Origin: a virus
UHGV virus genome: UHGV-0141439
Length of the DNA stretch: 64,000 nt
Direction: 5' to 3' (one strand)
Positions 6,193-35,157 of this stretch are shown here, piece after piece. A program made the translations under genes and the position numbers. Under the pieces are notes generated by a model that was given only the letters and a program-made list of their open reading frames with translations, was not told where the DNA came from and made no database searches. Numbering within the stretch: position 1 is the stretch's first letter; every line of letters starts with the position of its first letter.

Positions 6193-6921
6193 ATGATGTC
6201 AGAAAAAGTTACAGATAATCCGTCTATAAATGAAACAGAACTAAAATCATTTTCTGAAATAATAAAAGATAAAATATTTAACAAGGTTTTTGCATATGTT
6301 GTCATTTCTTTTCTAATTTTTAACTGGAAGGATATTTTAATTATATTAAAGTCAAAGGACGACATCCTATATACATTATCTATTGTTTTTGTTGGTGGTA
6401 ATGTCCCGTTCTTTGATAATTGGATTGTATCCCCGTGGGTTTATCACGTTGTAATCCCATTTGTTTATGGAGTATTTGCATCTGTGTTAGCTCCTATTCT
6501 CACACTGAAGATATCTAAGCTAACAAGTAAATTATACACTGAAATAAGATATTTAGATGAAGCTGCTGATTATGATAAAAGAATAGAATTGCAAAGAAAG
6601 AAAACAAAGTTAAATCAAGCAACCAATGACGCTAAATATTCAAAACAAATCTTAGATGAAAATGAAAATAAACTTAATGACCTAGCTAAGAAACAGCGAG
6701 AAATTTGCGGCGCGATAAAACTATTGCATACTGATGTTGGCAGTATTATTGAGCTATATAAAAATAAGGGGGTTAGCATTGAATCTCCGCAAGATTTATG
6801 TGATTTTATAGTCGCTATAAAAAGCACATCATTCTATAATGATGACAAGCATTTTAATAAATTGGTGTCTGATATTTCCAGTTTGTTTGATAATACTGGA
6901 ATTGATCTTTCAAAAAAATGA
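6193..6921 (+). CDS. AT-rich membrane protein with C-terminal coiled coil (possible abortive-infection/exclusion protein)
   Basis: 242 aa; three hydrophobic helices then a K/E-rich coiled coil; local GC far below the flanking DNA. Confidence 0.5.
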   Translation: MMSEKVTDNPSINETELKSFSEIIKDKIFNKVFAYVVISFLIFNWKDILIILKSKDDILYTLSIVFVGGNVPFFDNWIVSPWVYHVVIPFVYGVFASVLAPILTLKISKLTSKLYTEIRYLDEAADYDKRIELQRKKTKLNQATNDAKYSKQILDENENKLNDLAKKQREICGAIKLLHTDVGSIIELYKNKGVSIESPQDLCDFIVAIKSTSFYNDDKHFNKLVSDISSLFDNTGIDLSKK

Positions 6922-14123: not shown

Positions 14124-14446
14124 TGACCACATCTCATTCTGCAATTACCCAGGAAAAAGCCTTCCACATACTCGAACGATTAGAAACGCTCGCTACGGAG
14201 GAGAAGATATCCCCGGAGATGCTGGTCGAGTGCAGCCGTGTGATATTGCGTCGCAAGAACGACATCGCGCGGCTGACATCTGGCGCACCATCCGTATCAG
14301 CCAGTCCAACGCTTTATTGCAGCTTCTGCAACAAATCCCAGCACACCGTTAAAAAGTTAATTGCCGGGGACAACGCTTTCATCTGCAACGAGTGCGTGAA
14401 AGATTGCAACAACATTATCCAGGAAGAGCAAAGGGAATCAGCATGA
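14120..14446 (+). CDS. ClpX-type C4 zinc-finger protein
   Basis: [17 protein letters not shown]...FICNECV matches the ClpX N-terminal zinc ribbon. Confidence 0.5.
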
Positions 14447-15159
14447 AATTTTCCAAATTTTCTGAGTTGGTGAATCGTATTTTGTCCGACAACCACAGCC
14501 ATCGTCGCGATATGGATGTAACGATCGTTGTTCATTCGCCTGGTCGCATCGGTTCAACACCATCAGTTGAGGTTCAGTCAATTCAGGTGGGTTTTGATTG
14601 GGATGCCGGGAAAGTGCTGATTTTCCCAGCACAGCCACTGACCACGCTAACACCAGAACAGATTACTGATATCACGGATAGTGTGCGCAAAGGTCAGTCT
14701 TGGCACGCATATCAGGAATACAAGAAGCATAAAGAGCAGTTGGAAAAATTGTCGATTGAACTGGATGCTGCAAGACGGCGCATTACAGAACTGGAGAGCG
14801 AACGCGCGGTGCTGGCGGCGGAGAATGCGGAGCTGAAGTCTGTGCACCCTCAACCATTCGGAGCTGAGATGATGAAGGCTCTTGATGCGTATGAGAAGCA
14901 TCAGGATGAAGTGCCAGAGACTGGAATGCTCAATGCATTTTTCATCTTGCGCGACAGTATCTGTGTTGACACCCCAGCCACCGATGCTTTCCTGGCTGAA
15001 GTACGGGCGCAGGGGGTAGAGATGTACGCAGATAACCTCGACAACGGAGCAGACGACGCAGAACGAGGTGGTTTTGATTATGCCGTTAAGTTTCTACGCA
15101 GTGAAGCGTCTAGTGTACGTTTGTTCGCCGACCAGCTTCGCAAAGGAGGCAGCCAGTGA
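14443..15159 (+). CDS. Ea22-like family protein, paralogue 2
   Basis: Start ATG at 14443 overlaps the upstream TGA; C-terminus [17 protein letters not shown]...QLRKGGSQ is shared with 17734-18351. Confidence 0.45.
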
Positions 15160-18351: not shown

Positions 18352-18833
18352 GCGAAATTAATTACCAGGCACTGCGTGAGGCGGCGGAACGTGCAACTCC
18401 AGCAATGGAACGCCTGTTAATGTTGCCAGCTGATGATGATTTGTTAAGTGAACAGGAACTTAAAGATTACGGTGTGGATATTGATGCGCTCAACGCCTTC
18501 AAATTTCTGATCGGACCAGAAACCGTGCTGGCGCTGCTGGATGAACGGGAAAGAAACCAGCAATACATAAAACGCCGCGATCAGGAGAACGAGGATATTG
18601 CGCTAACGGTAGGGAAGCTGCGCGTTGAGCTTGAGGCAGAAAAACAGCGGGCAAAGGATCTGTTTATGGAAAATGCTCGGCTTAAGTCAGGTATAGCCGG
18701 TCTGATACACCTCGGTATTCGATATGCGGATGTTGAGGTCATGAAAATTGCTGGAGATGCCCAGCTTTCTACCCCATGCACTGACAGCATCATAAACAGC
18801 ATTGCAACAGGCATTCGCATCGAAGGAGAGTGA
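18348..18833 (+). CDS. Ea22-like family protein, paralogue 4
   Basis: N-terminus MSEINYQALREAAERAT; coiled coil LRVELEAEKQ. Confidence 0.45.
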   Translation: MSEINYQALREAAERATPAMERLLMLPADDDLLSEQELKDYGVDIDALNAFKFLIGPETVLALLDERERNQQYIKRRDQENEDIALTVGKLRVELEAEKQRAKDLFMENARLKSGIAGLIHLGIRYADVEVMKIAGDAQLSTPCTDSIINSIATGIRIEGE

Positions 18834-18834
18834 C

Positions 18835-19608
18835 ATGACCACTTTAACCGACAAAGAACTGATTAAAGAAATCAAAGAGCGCATAGGCAGCTTGGACGTT
18901 CGAGACAATATTGAGCGCCGTGCTTATGAAATTGCACTGGCATCGATGGAAGCAGATCCAGTTGCTTATATTTTCAAACATCCGGCCGGGAAATTATTCT
19001 GGGCTTTAACGGATGAAAGCAATAAAGAGCAAGCGGACGTTATTCCTGTTTATGCCGCCCCTCCAGTACCAGTAGTACCTGCTGCATTACCTGAGAACGA
19101 CGATGATGACGGGCATGACATTGATTATCTTGAGCCATCTGAAGTTTACTCGCTTGGGCGAACAGCTGGCTGGAACGCCTGCCGTGCTGCCATGCTTCAT
19201 GGTGCCGAACCTGTAAGCCAAACTTACAAGTTGCCTCCCCTGTCATCCAACGAAGTAAACGACGCGGCATGGAAATTACGCAACATGCTTACTGAACACG
19301 GTCCTCTTAATGGGCGTCAGTTCAACAATCTGAAAGGTTGCTTCTATGAGGCATTAAAGGTCGCAATGCGCAACTATCCGGTAACTCCGGATGGTTGGAT
19401 AAGCTGTAGTGAGCGAATGCCGGATACCAAAACAGCCGTTCTTGTTGCCAAGGAGTTTGATAGGAAAGGTGACTGGCGAATGAAATGGGCGACTTACATC
19501 CCGGGGCATCCTGACGCTAATGATGGGTGGATCATTCCTGGGGCGTCGTGGAAACCGTCACACTGGATGCCGCTACCAGAACCGCCGCAGGAGGTTAACC
19601 GTGGCTAA
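18835..19608 (+). CDS. DUF551-domain prophage protein
   Basis: C-terminus WISCSERMPD...HWMPLPEPP; ATG at 18835 after GAAGGAGAG. Confidence 0.55.
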   Translation: MTTLTDKELIKEIKERIGSLDVRDNIERRAYEIALASMEADPVAYIFKHPAGKLFWALTDESNKEQADVIPVYAAPPVPVVPAALPENDDDDGHDIDYLEPSEVYSLGRTAGWNACRAAMLHGAEPVSQTYKLPPLSSNEVNDAAWKLRNMLTEHGPLNGRQFNNLKGCFYEALKVAMRNYPVTPDGWISCSERMPDTKTAVLVAKEFDRKGDWRMKWATYIPGHPDANDGWIIPGASWKPSHWMPLPEPPQEVNRG

Positions 19609-20291: not shown

Positions 20292-20585
20292 ATGTGGCGC
20301 GGTAATAATCATGGTGGAAGCCAGATGATACTTACCGAATATCAGCTCGACCACAAAACCAATAAATCACGCTCAGTATATTTGCTTCGGCACAATAGCC
20401 GCGTAAGGAATACCGTGCTGGAGCAAAATCTGACCGTTGAAATGGATAATTCGGGGAACTTCAAGCCAACAATTTCGCTTGATGATTTTCCGCGTGGTTT
20501 AAGCGAAAGAGAAGCCATGCTGAAATTAGCAGAATGGCTTCAGAGGTTAAGTATTGTTATTGAAGATAACTGGAGTCAACCATAA
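20292..20585 (+). CDS. Hypothetical protein
   Basis: 97-aa ORF. Confidence 0.4.
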   Translation: MWRGNNHGGSQMILTEYQLDHKTNKSRSVYLLRHNSRVRNTVLEQNLTVEMDNSGNFKPTISLDDFPRGLSEREAMLKLAEWLQRLSIVIEDNWSQP

Positions 20586-20739
20586 TGAAAAACAGAAAGA
20601 AATTTTGGATTACTTTTTTGTTTGTATGCCTTTGCGGTTTATTTATTTTATTAGCTGGTGGTGTTAAATGGGGTACGGTGGGGTGTGGTTTTTGGAGCGG
20701 GGTTACTCTTTTCGCAGCCTGGCTTATCGCCAACTTTGA
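20584..20739 (+). CDS. Small membrane protein (51 aa)
   Basis: Hand-translated MKNRKKFWITFLFVCLCGLFILLAGGVKWGTVGCGFWSGVTLFAAWLIANF; not in the ORF track. Confidence 0.3.
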
Positions 20740-20781
20740 GTCAGGCGGAGGGTATTGGTAAGTGGTCTTATTCCCCACTTC

Positions 20782-20834
20782 ATAACGGATATCACGCTCG
20801 TGATAACGGATATTCCAATTTTGATAACGGATAA
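20782..20834. repeat. Three direct repeats of (G)ATAACGGATA at 21-bp spacing
   Basis: Copies begin at about 20782, 20802 and 20823; upstream of the 20841 gene. Confidence 0.6.
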
Positions 20835-20840
20835 GGCCAA

Positions 20841-21050
20841 ATGAAGCATTTTTTAAGGTTGGCATTTGTTCTGGCGCTATTTGATCCTCCGGCTGCAATG
20901 GCTGGAGAACAGCAACATTGCACAAAAGAGAATGAACCCCCTTTCATCGTTATTCAATGCGATGACGGAACGGTGACTGTGGTTAATGTAAGAAATGACC
21001 GTGTAGCTGTTTGCCGTAAAGGCGAACCATGCAAGGAAATAAAACTATGA
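20841..21050 (+). CDS. Small secreted Cys-containing protein
   Basis: 69 aa with signal peptide. Confidence 0.4.
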   Translation: MKHFLRLAFVLALFDPPAAMAGEQQHCTKENEPPFIVIQCDDGTVTVVNVRNDRVAVCRKGEPCKEIKL

Positions 21051-21805
21051 CAAGAATCACTAAAGAGCGTATTTCAGATATTATTTCCCGTATCGAAATG
21101 TATGGTCACGGTGCTGGATATACGGCAGATGAAGTATTGGCACTTGCCCAAATGGCTTTGGCGGCTTGCAAAGATGATAAAAAAATGAAGCTTATCGACT
21201 TGTTAGTGAAGGAGCTGCCTAAGTGCGGCGGGTGGCCTGATGGTATGATCGATTGTCGCCTGCTCAGTGCCAATTTAATGGCGCCATGCGCGACTTTTGC
21301 TTTTGGCTCAGACCACAAAAAAGACACGTTCTTTGGGCGCAATTTTTGTTGTGAGATTGAGCTTCCAATTGGTGACCTTGATAGCGATGAATACCTGTCA
21401 GTTGTCACTCGCGAACAATACGAATCAGCTCTCATAGCGTCGCAGAAAGTCGAGTTCAATGGTGATGAACTTGAAAGTAAGACTTACAGGTTGGATTTTG
21501 GGCAATGGCTGGAACAGCAACGCGGGAAAATCGATGTGGACTGTGGTTGTGTGTCCACTGAAACATTCATGCACTGGCTGCGGGTAGCTTACGAGGCTGG
21601 CAACCATCCGGATTTTCCGGATAGTTCCCAACAATCGCCCAAGAAAAGCGTAAAAACCACTCTGGAAAGAGGCTATCTTGAGGCCGCATTAAAGATTAAG
21701 CCTGGCCATACGCTAGGCGTCATTGATGCCATGTTGGTTCATGAAATGGCGAAGGCTTTATTGCCGCTGGTGGCTGATAAAATTCCGAATAAAGCCGATA
21801 TCTGA
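21029..21805 (+). CDS. Hypothetical protein
   Basis: 258-aa ORF. Confidence 0.45.
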   Translation: MQGNKTMTRITKERISDIISRIEMYGHGAGYTADEVLALAQMALAACKDDKKMKLIDLLVKELPKCGGWPDGMIDCRLLSANLMAPCATFAFGSDHKKDTFFGRNFCCEIELPIGDLDSDEYLSVVTREQYESALIASQKVEFNGDELESKTYRLDFGQWLEQQRGKIDVDCGCVSTETFMHWLRVAYEAGNHPDFPDSSQQSPKKSVKTTLERGYLEAALKIKPGHTLGVIDAMLVHEMAKALLPLVADKIPNKADI

Positions 21806-22929: not shown

Positions 22930-24024
22930 TCATTCAATGATTTTTTCGGCTGTCAGCCAGCTAATTTCGTGCCTGTCTTTCGGCGGTTTTAGCATGTGAG
23001 CATATTCAGCGACATGCTCCCACGGAATTGTTTTTGCCCACTCAACGATAGCATTGTGATCTGCAGTGAAGAGTGGAATAGTGTGCGATTTCAACCATTC
23101 TAATGTCGTGACGCCATGTTTTTTGGCGTGGTGCTGCGCATGATGCCGGGCTATCACTCGTAATGGCATTGTCCATTCACTACCATCAGGCATCGAAAAG
23201 CGCATTGTCTTCGGCATATCTGATTCAAGAACAGCCTCCCTAATACCAGGGAACTCACCAAGAATCATACGACGATAGTCATCACTATTTCGCCCGCCAT
23301 ACCTTTCGGCAAAATGATCAAGATATTCTTGGGTAATAAATGGTGAATCCTCCGCACTCAGCTTAATGGCTTTATATACACCACTCGGATTATCTTCAGC
23401 TAAAGCACGTCCATGATGTGAATCATAAAAAAAGCCTATTTCCTCTGGTGACGGAATTGAAGTGAGCAATATGCGTGAATCACCACTAGTCATGCTTGCC
23501 CACACAATGCTGTATGCCCGATCGCTGATATGTGCGGAATCCACAATAATGAATAAAAGATGGTCGGCGTAGTGACCTGCAATGCTATCTTCATAGTTAA
23601 GGCGGTAGTTACAAAAGCACATTCCCCAAAATTCATTGAACATCAGACCGCTATCACCGACCTTAAAATACTCAATGATAAAAGGTTGTTTTTTCAGCAA
23701 TGCCTCCCAACATTGCCACACATATGCAACAATTCCTCTTTTGCAAACATTTGATTTTGGATAAACAATTACTGTCCGGGAATCAGGATACATAATCGTA
23801 TAAAGGGTACTAATAACAGCAAGCACTTGCGGTCGTCCGATCCCATACGGAGTGGTGACAGTAGCTTTTGCATTATTGGGCTGTATAGCTTCAACAATTT
23901 GTTGTTGCTGGTGGCTTAAATCAATATCAAACAATTCTTTTGCTGCCAGTACCCAATTGTCTTTATATTTCTCCACCAGCGACAGCCAGCGCGGATCTTT
24001 ATAAATATTGCTCTTAGTCGCCAT
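22930..24024 (-). CDS. PacB paralogue: terminase-large-subunit-like ATPase domain with degenerate Walker motifs and a different His-rich C-terminus
   Basis: Collinear with PacB at 29172-30680 (DPRW, SHQQQ, HLLxI(V/L)D, FYDSHH, YGGR...GxFP); Walker A GHGTGKS is replaced by PYGIGRP and DEAS by DSAH. Start at Met98 of the track ORF. Confidence 0.5.
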   Translation of the reverse strand: MATKSNIYKDPRWLSLVEKYKDNWVLAAKELFDIDLSHQQQQIVEAIQPNNAKATVTTPYGIGRPQVLAVISTLYTIMYPDSRTVIVYPKSNVCKRGIVAYVWQCWEALLKKQPFIIEYFKVGDSGLMFNEFWGMCFCNYRLNYEDSIAGHYADHLLFIIVDSAHISDRAYSIVWASMTSGDSRILLTSIPSPEEIGFFYDSHHGRALAEDNPSGVYKAIKLSAEDSPFITQEYLDHFAERYGGRNSDDYRRMILGEFPGIREAVLESDMPKTMRFSMPDGSEWTMPLRVIARHHAQHHAKKHGVTTLEWLKSHTIPLFTADHNAIVEWAKTIPWEHVAEYAHMLKPPKDRHEISWLTAEKIIE

Positions 24025-24781
24025 CTGCCACTTCCTTAACTTCTTCTTTGGCCTGTTCTGCAATCGCCGCACGGCATTTCGCCCTGGCCGTAGCGATTGC
24101 TTCAGCACGCACATCATCAGGAATCGTTGACGTGATATACATATCCAGTTCTTCGGCGCGGAACACTGTTTGGTCCAGATATTCGCGTAGCATCCAGGTA
24201 AATTCGAAATCACACGCGATAATCTCTGCGCTACCTTCTGCACCATTTGGGAAATGAATAAAAGCCTGTTTAGCCAAACCGATAACACGACATGCGGTTG
24301 CCAAAACAGCGGCAACCAGGTTTACATTTTCACACGCTACGGGCTGATTAACGCCGGAGATTACTCCATTTAACTGTCGGTTATATGGAAGGTAGTTTGA
24401 GATGCGTTCTACGCGCCATGTGCCAGTCAGGCTGCCATTCTTAAAGATAATTGGTGTAACGGATAGCCCAAGCTCGCGTATAAGTCGTTGCGCTATAGCA
24501 GGATCATTAAACATGTCTAATGCTACACATTCGAAAGACTGTGCAAGGGTAAACAGTTCTTCCAGAGAGTAGTCTTTGCCCCTGGCGGTGATGTAACGAT
24601 GAACGCCGCTTTCTGCATCACTCCATATAGCTACGCCATGCTCTTCATTCAGCTCTTCATTAAAGCCGAGATACGTCATGATAGTACGTTCAATCGTGTC
24701 AAACGGCAGTGACATGTCGGCGTTAACAGCCACCAGCAGGCCATTACGCAAGCGGTATTGAATTGCTTTAGTATTTTCCAC
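24014..24781 (-). CDS. Hypothetical protein
   Basis: 255-aa ORF; overlaps the downstream start. Confidence 0.4.
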   Translation of the reverse strand: MENTKAIQYRLRNGLLVAVNADMSLPFDTIERTIMTYLGFNEELNEEHGVAIWSDAESGVHRYITARGKDYSLEELFTLAQSFECVALDMFNDPAIAQRLIRELGLSVTPIIFKNGSLTGTWRVERISNYLPYNRQLNGVISGVNQPVACENVNLVAAVLATACRVIGLAKQAFIHFPNGAEGSAEIIACDFEFTWMLREYLDQTVFRAEELDMYITSTIPDDVRAEAIATARAKCRAAIAEQAKEEVKEVADGD

Positions 24782-33962: not shown

Positions 33963-34038
33963 TGGTGGCCCCTACCGGACTTGAACCGGTGACCGTGCGA
34001 TTATGAGTCGCCAGCTCTAACCACTGAGCTAAAGGGCC
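33963..34038 (-). tRNA. tRNA-Ile2/Met type, anticodon CAU
   Basis: Hand-folded 76-nt cloverleaf with encoded CCA; closely resembles E. coli ileX. Confidence 0.8.
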
Positions 34039-34208
34039 AGATTACTGTTAATTCCGCTTACGCTTTTTGCCAGAACCGCGTAAGGCTTTTGCCGCTTGCT
34101 CGATCCCATATGCAACCACCAGCAGAAATAAAAATGTCCAACCAGGGTTCTTATCGGCAAAGGCCCAAAAATCCATCACTTGCAGCTACCTTTTAAGACA
34201 AAACGCCA

Positions 34209-34223
34209 TTGCTGTTAGATTGC
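34209..34223. other. Hairpin CCTGG-TGCCT-CCAGG
   Basis: Second member of the covarying hairpin set. Confidence 0.4.
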
Positions 34224-34450
34224 GGTGCCTGGTGCCTCCAGGTGACGTTAACCAGTTAACAATTAACGCCGGGATGTTTGATTTAACCACTAAGGAGGAT
34301 TGTTTTAACTGTTCCGCGTGCGCTTAGCCGCATTCACCGCAATGGTAAGAGCACTTGGCTGGCTGGGCGGCGATGACGCCTGTACGCATTTGGTGATCCG
34401 GTTCTGCTTCCGGCATTCGCTTAATTAGCCAAATACTCTTAACGTTGCGC

Positions 34451-34537
34451 TGGCGGAGAGTAATGGAATCGAACCATCATCGCTTGCGCAATGGGACGGT
34501 TTTCAAGACCGCTTGAGCACCATGCTCCCTACTCTCC
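34451..34537 (-). tRNA. tRNA-Ser, anticodon UGA (class II, long variable arm), tentative
   Basis: 87 nt; GGAGAGT/ACTCTCC acceptor stem, loop CUUGAAA, GGTTCGATTCC T-arm, encoded CCA; D-arm spacing is atypical. Confidence 0.55.
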
Positions 34538-34682
34538 GGCCGTTGTGGTGGCCGGTACTGAATCTCCGGCATACGGTGCAGCCAATTAGGACTACGGACG
34601 ATCACCGCTCGCGAAAGGGAAGATTTGCGGCCGCATTTCCCTAACATCCAAGAAAGCTATCGCATCAGTCTGCGAATCCACC

Positions 34683-34774
34683 ACAACGTTGAGAACACTG
34701 GTTGTCACGCTGCAACGCAACATTTATTCGTAGATTGGGATATGACCCCGTTACGTCAGTGTTCTCAACGTTGT
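34683..34774. repeat. Perfect 18-bp inverted repeat ACAACGTTGAGAACACTG with 56-bp spacer
   Basis: Arms at 34683-34700 and 34757-34774. Confidence 0.6.
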
Positions 34775-35002
34775 AGTACCGGTTACGGTTCCGGCCAGGC
34801 CTCTTCCTCAACGGGGTATTCTCCATACGGACTACCGTTTATTGGTCGTTCCTGCGGTTTATGTTGTGAAGCCAGATGCTTATCTTCTGGTTGCTTCAAA
34901 GAGCTGCACTTCATCACAACGGTAAGGGTACTTCGTAGGGATTCGAACCCTCTGCCAAGCACGGCGATCTCCGACGTCGCAAAATACCCTTACCTGTTGT
35001 GT

Positions 35003-35078
35003 TGGTGCCGATTAACGGACTCGAACCGCTGACATCCTGCTTACAAGGCAGGCGCTCTACCAACTGAGCTAAACCGGC
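35003..35078 (-). tRNA. tRNA-Thr, anticodon UGU
   Basis: Canonical 76-nt cloverleaf, loop CUUGUAA, encoded CCA. Confidence 0.8.
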
Positions 35079-35080
35079 AT

Positions 35081-35157
35081 TGGCGATGGTGGGTGGATTC
35101 GAACCACCGACCGACAGCTTAGAAGGCTGCTGCTCTATCCTACTGAGCTACACCATC
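35081..35157 (-). tRNA. tRNA-Arg, anticodon UCU
   Basis: Canonical 77-nt cloverleaf, loop CUUCUAA, encoded CCA. Confidence 0.8.

Follow-up and report, generated by a model that had tools for sequence, protein, structure and literature searches.

The window, by which we mean the whole 64,000-nucleotide stretch of DNA analysed here, belongs to a D6/P1-like phage-plasmid and is nearly identical to the E. coli plasmid pTB423 (rep_cluster_1704), a type whose gene content includes pacA/pacB, a giant SNF2-type gene, Ref, a lytic replication protein, an invertase, hot and humD. The locus considered here is a 79-bp gap between a 58-aa hydrophobic ORF and a 69-aa signal-peptide gene, within an accessory cluster of tightly packed, co-directional + strand genes (ead/Ea22-like, DUF551, ASCH, ... 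hot, humD) in which the neighbours at 18802-19608 and 21047-21805 match the mosaic families phrog_60/3323/924. The P1 and SJ46 records have the upstream 97-aa ORF in common with the window and lack the array of repeats that fills much of this gap, the parts of which are as follows.

20585-20761, + strand: 58-aa hydrophobic (membrane) ORF, upstream of the array and unlinked to it
20740-20844, + strand: 34 codons, the only stop-free stretch in the frame ATA-ACG-GAT (the ITD frame)
20781-20791, + strand: repeat 1, CATAACGGATA, with the core ATAACGGATA at 20782-20791 and TTC before the core
20792-20801, + strand: spacer 1, TCACGCTCGT, unlike spacer 2 and variable between alleles
20802-20812, + strand: repeat 2, GATAACGGATA, with GTG in front
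20813-20822, + strand: spacer 2, TTCCAATTTT, variable between alleles
20823-20833, + strand: repeat 3, GATAACGGATA, with TTG in front, its last two bases entering the ribosome-binding site
20832-20836, + strand: TAAGG, the likely Shine-Dalgarno sequence of the 69-aa gene as read from the sequence, 4 nt from the ATG and overlapping the end of repeat 3
20841-21050, + strand: 69-aa signal-peptide gene with four cysteines, phrog_20764 (function unknown)

The initial annotation had described three direct repeats at 21-bp spacing just upstream of a small secreted-protein gene, and on both points it was right: the start-to-start distances are 21 and 21, and the 69-aa protein that begins at the ATG at 20841 opens with a typical signal peptide (MKHFLRLAFVLALFDPPAAMA/GEQQ). 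Its span and motif needed adjustment, as the three-copy array, although real, runs from 20781 to 20833, one base to the left of the limits first given, and the motif first given is exact in repeats 2 and 3 but has one mismatch in repeat 1, which begins with C. Exactly common to all three units is the 10-mer ATAACGGATA, and the segment 20778-20843 reads CTTC-ATAACGGATA-TCACGCTCGTG-ATAACGGATA-TTCCAATTTTG-ATAACGGATA-AGGCCAA-ATG. This is the sole 10-mer in the 64-kb window with three equally spaced copies (at 11-60 bp spacing); such triples numbered 0 in 20 shuffles, and their analytic chance expectation is ~3e-6. The array is non-random and a real feature, which these counts confirm. A search at 0 mismatches found no further copy of the core in the window or in the whole of pTB423, and on that ground we discarded the idea that other copies serve as distant operators. 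The 10-nt core is identical in 3/3 units, whereas the two spacers agree at 3/9 positions. Tandem Repeats Finder reported nothing at the array because the spacers are unrelated to one another, and the uniform similarity of the whole unit that characterizes a simple tandem duplication (minisatellite) is absent here, the core alone being repeated.

Several other features of this phage-plasmid were recorded in passing. At 22930-24315 on the - strand, near humD and hot and apart from the pacA/pacB pair, lies a second terminase-ATPase-like gene, a 461-aa ORF with 37% identity over 259 aa (E = 3e-58) to a PacB-like terminase of a Pantoea P1-like plasmid. Four tRNA genes occupy 33963-35157 on the - strand (Met (CAT), Ser (TGA), Thr (TGT) and Arg (TCT)); the one with the CAT anticodon could, we presume, be a tRNA-Ile that reads AUA, like that of P1, and each repeat uses AUA as its Ile codon. 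In pTB423, 77686-79347 (L008 31686-33347) is annotated as a full-length glutamine-tRNA ligase gene, glnS, an unusual cargo for a phage-plasmid.

Possible protein binding at the DNA or the mRNA

The initial annotation took the exact 21-bp phase as the mark of an iteron-like or transcription-activator array, bound by a multimeric protein on one face of the helix. Three identical cores at exactly 21 bp would suit such a protein, as would the Salmonella allele described below, in which the spacing is kept at 21 despite a seemingly shifted spacer 2. The anatomy of the locus, however, argues against it: no TANNNT -10 hexamer occurs on either strand of 20762-20843, a promoter scan of 20700-20900 found no promoter-like site, there is no terminator at the array, and repeat 3 ends just 7 nt before the ATG, so that no room is left for an activator-dependent promoter and its leader. 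No rep or regulator gene lies nearby, and no DNA-binding gene adjoins the array in the window, E. marmotae or Salmonella alleles. The real iterons of the plasmid are 20-mers at 22-23 bp (TTGAGGGCAAATCTTACACC x5, with three more close by) beside repB, and together with repB they occupy pTB423 600-1800, away from the array, whose neighbours are small accessory ORFs, hot and humD. Since TTGAGGGCAAATCTTACACC is unrelated to ATAACGGATA, which occurs nowhere else on the plasmid, we also rejected the array as a set of replicon iterons or an incompatibility locus. The likeness to plasmid iterons (the 19-mers of P1 RepA and the plasmid's own 20-mers) lies in having at least three direct repeats about two helical turns apart; the differences are a unit of 10-13 bp, the lack of an adjoining rep gene or origin, and a position in a transcribed gap 7 nt before a start codon. 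The identical 21-nt phase recurs, moreover, in translated repeats elsewhere. Taken together, these observations leave the proposal unsupported, and we regard an iteron or activator array as highly improbable.

A protein might instead act on the transcript. If the repeats were CsrA sites (GGA) in the mRNA, a dimer could bridge sites 21 nt apart and occlude the ribosome-binding site, and the sequence offers some of what this would require, with A-C-GGA-U in each core, the third GGA 2 nt upstream of the Shine-Dalgarno sequence, and a separation of 21 nt that falls within the CsrA bridging range of 10-63 nt and close to its optimum of about 18 nt (PMC7652899). The SELEX consensus RUACARGGAUGU, however, has a 100% conserved ACA and a GGA that is usually found in the loop of a hairpin (PMC7652899), whereas the cores read AUAAC-GGA-UA, without the ACA, and no conserved hairpin presents their GGA. 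In neither the minimum-free-energy nor the centroid folds are the cores covered by a conserved hairpin, and with z-scores of +0.2 and +1.6 the array RNA folds no better than shuffled sequence in the window and Salmonella alleles alike. A candidate hairpin between repeats 1 and 2 (ATCAC-GCTC-GTGAT) was dropped because its stem, judged by eye, is altered in the Salmonella allele, and an Rfam search of the array region returned no family at E <= 5. Multi-site CsrA leaders and CsrB-type sponges resemble the array in carrying GGA motifs ~20 nt apart, the last of them near the Shine-Dalgarno sequence, but they combine ACA with hairpin presentation, both of which the window array lacks. Natural sites within one leader are, in addition, not identical 10-13-mers like those found here, and copies in the middle of an ORF, of which there are many in other phages, are unexpected for a control of initiation; CsrA binding is accordingly a very unlikely account. 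To our knowledge, no C1 operator, Lpa late promoter, DnaA box, IHF site, type III toxin-antitoxin repeat RNA or integrase arm site fits the sequence or anatomy of the array.

Alleles of the locus and its coding potential

The search of related genomes that the initial annotation had proposed finds the repeat kept in some related elements, with the cores retained and the spacers diverged. Related plasmids present four kinds of allele at this locus. Window-type and E. marmotae-type alleles have an identical array and a diverged upstream flank. The Salmonella pCFSAN058545_02-type allele, also found in one metagenome contig, has an unrelated upstream gene and keeps a spacing of 21; its cores are CATAACGGATA, GATAACGGACA and GATAACGGATA, its spacers have diverged, and its homology with the window starts at the CTTC directly 5' of repeat 1. 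The E. albertii-type allele has the 58-aa ORF, no array and a different signal-peptide-coding 5' end, and the RHB43-type allele is without both the 58-aa ORF and the array; array-free alleles carry a different signal-peptide-coding 5' end. Because the Salmonella allele has an unrelated gene in place of the 58-aa ORF and E. albertii has the ORF but no array, we consider this ORF unlinked to the array. The same pattern across related plasmids indicates that the array and the signal-peptide-coding 5' end of the 69-aa gene travel as one module. More than 120 conjugative plasmids, all of those inspected being IncI2-sized, carry a homologue of the 69-aa gene at ~77% nucleotide identity and no repeats. 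In one IncI2 example (L005 2467-2718), genes for type IV secretion and entry exclusion follow a few genes downstream of the homologue.

Within the array, change is unevenly distributed. Between the window and Salmonella alleles the cores differ at 1/30 positions and the rest of the 63-nt segment at 10/33 (Fisher p = 0.005), and in the downstream 69-aa gene 19/69 third codon positions differ. The single core change, GAT to GAC, is synonymous in the ITD frame, and four further polymorphic sites among viral and metagenome alleles all fall outside the cores. Spacer 2 of the Salmonella allele looks shifted by one base, as by an insertion-deletion pair, and the spacing is nonetheless 21. Repeat 1 of that allele is intact despite being untranslatable, there being a TAG three codons upstream of it and no start codon.

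These comparisons bear on whether the array is itself still translated. The ITD frame from 20740 to 20844 gives VRRRVLVSGLIPHF-ITDITLV-ITDIPIL-ITDKAK*, its TGA overlapping the next ATG (ATGA), and its possible starts are TTG 20755, which would give 29 aa, and GTG 20800, which would give MITDIPILITDKAK*. Termination of such a mini-ORF at the ATGA could couple its translation to that of the 69-aa gene. In keeping with this, no allele of the array has a stop in this frame within the three units, every allele ends it at the ATGA overlap, the conserved codons fit the pattern h-I-T-D (h = hydrophobic) with the synonymous GAT to GAC as the sole core change, and NTG codons precede repeats 2 and 3. Yet TTG 20755 is TTA in E. 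marmotae, the Salmonella allele has its TAG before repeat 1 and no start codon, GTG 20800 is without a good Shine-Dalgarno sequence, and ~21 open codons arise by chance about one time in three, (61/64)^21. Continued translation with coupling therefore seems improbable to us, and the 34-codon stretch is probably a relic, at most a mini-ORF.

Two other ways of reading through the repeats were considered and rejected. Coding in the CAT-AAC-GGA frame (…HNGYHARDNGYSNFDNG*, ORF 20658-20834) lacks a start codon and meets a stop just upstream in E. marmotae. Past the end of the 58-aa ORF, the +1 frame runs through the repeats without a stop in the window but meets an early one in E. marmotae. The sequence there (20747-20761, GGAGGGUAUUGGUAA) resembles the +1 frameshift site of prfB (AGGGGGUAUCUUUGA), but UGG could not re-pair after the shift, and we put the resemblance down to coincidence.

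The same repeat in other phages

Viral contigs were scanned at a fixed 21-nt spacing for TAACGGA x3 and for ATAACGGATA x2, and at variable spacing for ATAACGGATA x2. These scans revealed many enterobacterial-type phage contexts in which 2-4 copies of ATAACGGATA follow one another, nearly always at 21 nt, and the spacers are unrelated. The majority have the array within a long ORF, in the frame ATA-ACG-GAT and between dissimilar protein parts, so that the translated unit is the seven-codon 'h-I-T-D-(S/N)-x-x', with the consensus NT(G/C)-AT(A/C)-ACGGAT-A(G/A)C plus about two variable codons. Contigs L133, L181 and L196 encode ...ALEIALPILEQQEM-ITDSQPV-ITDSAEM-ITDS...GEWIEWGGG, the array being preceded by ...EQQEM; L186 and L188 encode MTTITRER...GQPI-ITDNVDL-ITDK-QPEPVMVAEC..., and L184 encodes ...AAMLQGA...M-ITDSRGM-ITDNTEPVSQPYTLPDGWV (...M-ITDSRGM-ITDNTEPVSQPYTLPDGW). 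L187 also has an in-frame ITD array in a long ORF. The local layout of the window recurs in L191, where an 87-aa ORF ends in three units (...APV-ITDSGNL-ITDSGEM-ITDNKEDKC*) and its stop overlaps the ATG of a small signal-peptide gene, followed by a hot (theta) homologue, an arrangement presumed to be the ancestral layout of the window array.

The window copy fits this class in most respects: TTC, GTG and TTG precede ATAACGGATA, its cores are identical to those of at least 15 other contexts, it has the 21-nt period, the 2-4 units and the unrelated spacers, and it lies among phrog_60-type mosaic genes with allele breakpoints at the edge of the array. It departs from the class in lying outside any long ORF, vestigial or non-coding like the copies of L185, L194 and L282. 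The array-bearing proteins and the window neighbours match the same mosaic PHROGs of unknown function (phrog_60, 3323, 660, 924, 12449 and 26870); pairwise BLASTP of window 21047-21805 against L188 was not significant, the relationship being one of shared PHROG profile matches alone. Arrays are non-coding elsewhere as well (L185, L190, L194 and L218), and non-coding copies elsewhere have spacings of 14, 19 or 22.

A degenerate scan for ATH-ACN-GAY x3 returned mostly 7-bp microsatellites, and the only new arrays were those of L218 and L245; it found no enterobacterial-type array with other Thr or Asp codons, and its sole codon variants were ATC for Ile in L191, L218 and L245. The L218 array (reverse strand, 1794-1850) has three non-coding units at 21 nt, ATCACGGAT / ATAACGGAT / ATCACGGAT, whose ITD frame is interrupted by stop codons, and lies ~360 nt downstream of ptsG on an enterobacterial-type contig. 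L245 (reverse strand, 6540-6600) has a 662-aa ORF with in-frame IITDSDN-LITDNEE-LITDNEK in ATC-ACG-GAT codons, the N-terminus of which, by eye, is unlike a phage accessory protein, and the repeat family may thus not be confined to phrog_60-type genes. Searches of E. coli genomes with the contexts of L133 and L218 gave no match, and among the matches listed for TAACGGA x3 in genome contigs, most were coding tandem repeats from other phyla.

Two further observations concern similar sequences. In ~90 kb Pantoea P1-like plasmids, CATAACGGAT is repeated x2-4 at 21 nt (L158 8097-8145; also L131, L140, L148, L154, L157 and L192), antisense to the 3' end of a pacA-like gene and with heptads SVMTD; its copy number differs between contigs, and in L158 the array ends ~23 nt before a pacB-like start. 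In the window itself, the ORF 14392-15159 encodes ITDITDS at 14662-14682 (ATT ACT GAT ATC ACG GAT AGT), which may be a degenerate remnant of the same repeat in a neighbouring accessory gene.

The positions of the arrays point to mosaic joints. L183 and L188 have an N-terminal domain in common up to the second core and differ afterwards; in L194 and L185 the ORF terminates within the array, at a core read outside the ITD frame; and in L282 a 19-nt spacing places two cores in different frames. In L129, L133, L138, L181 and L196 (alignment A2), a ~130-nt block spanning GCCCTTGAGATTGCACTCCC...array...GGCTGGATTGAGTGGGGTGG is nearly identical and the flanking coding DNA is strongly diverged, which is the signature of a shared recombination patch. 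Arrays thus coincide with the joints of exchanged domains or genes, and from these breakpoint positions we infer a role for them in recombination. Mosaic lambdoid phages use short conserved patches at module joints for relaxed homologous recombination (PMC2327257, PMC3945230). Like such patches, the arrays lie at breakpoints between exchanged domains or genes and are common to otherwise dissimilar genes. Those papers concern diverged homologous sequences generally and not a periodic array of ATAACGGATA (PMC2327257, PMC3945230). Coding minisatellites of the heptad type are alike in their seven-codon period, their variation between 2 and 4 copies and their frameshifting indels, but here ~13/21 nt are conserved, the spacers have fully diverged, and the window copy lies outside a long ORF. 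Literature retrieved for the 10-mer ATAACGGATA held only unrelated primers and sequences, and no retrieved paper describes the 21-nt periodic array; the repeat family is itself undescribed in that literature, but it resembles known patches and coding minisatellites at mosaic joints.

Origin and possible roles of the array

The explanation that we prefer, and in which we place about half of our confidence, is that the array is a seven-codon phage repeat stranded at a recombination joint, where it provides the translation-initiation context of the 69-aa gene. It would have originated as a copy, three units long, of a 21-nt repeat that is widespread among mosaic accessory genes in Enterobacterales temperate phages and phage-plasmids, would have arrived jointly with the signal-peptide-coding 5' end of the 69-aa gene, and would have been left at a gene-swap junction, stranded in the 79-bp gap and no longer within a long ORF. 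The exact 21-bp phase would then be inherited codon periodicity and not an alignment on one helical face; as in-ORF copies are translated at a 21-nt period, codon periodicity explains the phase at least as well. Its present role would be that of a short leader and ribosome-binding context for the 69-aa gene, with repeat 3 extending into the TAAGG and the stop of the ITD frame overlapping the ATG, and it may have a second one as a patch common to other phage genes at which recombination swaps flanking modules. Against this reading stands the expectation that a pure relic decays evenly, whereas here the cores are conserved and the spacers changed.

That unevenness is what gives weight to a role for the nucleotide sequence. 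Across independent contexts, ACGGAT and the A that follows it are almost invariant, while S, N, K, T, I or M may follow D; a Leu preceding the core is invariably encoded by TTG and Thr by ACG, a single core departs from GAT for Asp, and GAT is followed by A in nearly all same-strand cores. This suggests that constraint may act on the nucleotide sequence itself, although the invariance could also reflect shared descent, spread among phages by recombination, or ascertainment through exact-DNA searches. Nor is the consistent ITD frame evidence of a peptide function, because the core holds stops in the other two forward frames (A-TAA-CGG; GGA-TAA/TAG) and only the ITD frame can persist within an ORF.

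The cores might accordingly be sites at which a sequence-specific host factor, or a widespread phage factor, acts on DNA or mRNA, which is the main alternative, though in our view an unlikely one. Bound at three sites, the last of them abutting the Shine-Dalgarno sequence, such a factor would repress or modulate translation of the 69-aa gene, and the motif would be tolerated within ORFs only in the ITD frame. The conservation of cores and not of spacers agrees with this, as do the invariance of T(G/C)-AT(A/C)-ACGGATA in unrelated contexts, synonymous positions and the variable residue included, the non-coding arrays of L185, L190 and L194 and that of L218 3' of ptsG, the position of repeat 3 next to the Shine-Dalgarno sequence, and an array RNA predicted to be unstructured and hence accessible. 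Set against it are that no candidate factor was found and no regulator gene adjoins the array in either allele, that the motif is absent elsewhere on the plasmid, that non-coding copies do not keep the spacing (14, 19, 22), and that the same gene is array-free in sister plasmids and IncI2 plasmids; shared descent and exact-DNA ascertainment may also inflate the apparent invariance. Phased protein-binding repeats are compatible with coding, as the iterons of the lambda ori lie inside gene O, and these iterons offer a model for a nucleic-acid signal tolerated in one coding frame. They bind the product of the gene that contains them and have an AT-rich unwinding region alongside, and nothing comparable is present at the window array.

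More broadly, it is conceivable, if doubtful, that ATAACGGATA arrays as a family are a nucleic-acid signal, a site for binding or cutting by a host or phage factor or a dedicated recombination hotspot, and not a mere peptide repeat. Arrays of that kind would drive the shuffling of domains and genes, or post-transcriptional control, in the accessory regions of lambdoid and P1-like Enterobacterales phages, and the window copy would be a functional untranslated instance that controls the 69-aa gene.

On the preferred reading, that of a stranded seven-codon repeat, the locus illustrates that exact two-turn phasing can derive from a coding repeat of seven codons, and our results remove a tempting but unsupported annotation of an iteron or activator array. 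More widely, they reveal a recurrent repeat, its core conserved in nucleotide sequence, at the joints where accessory genes of Enterobacterales temperate phages and phage-plasmids are mosaic. Should that core turn out to be a recombination or binding signal and not only a peptide repeat, it would open a concrete, testable way into the shuffling of domains and small genes between such elements.
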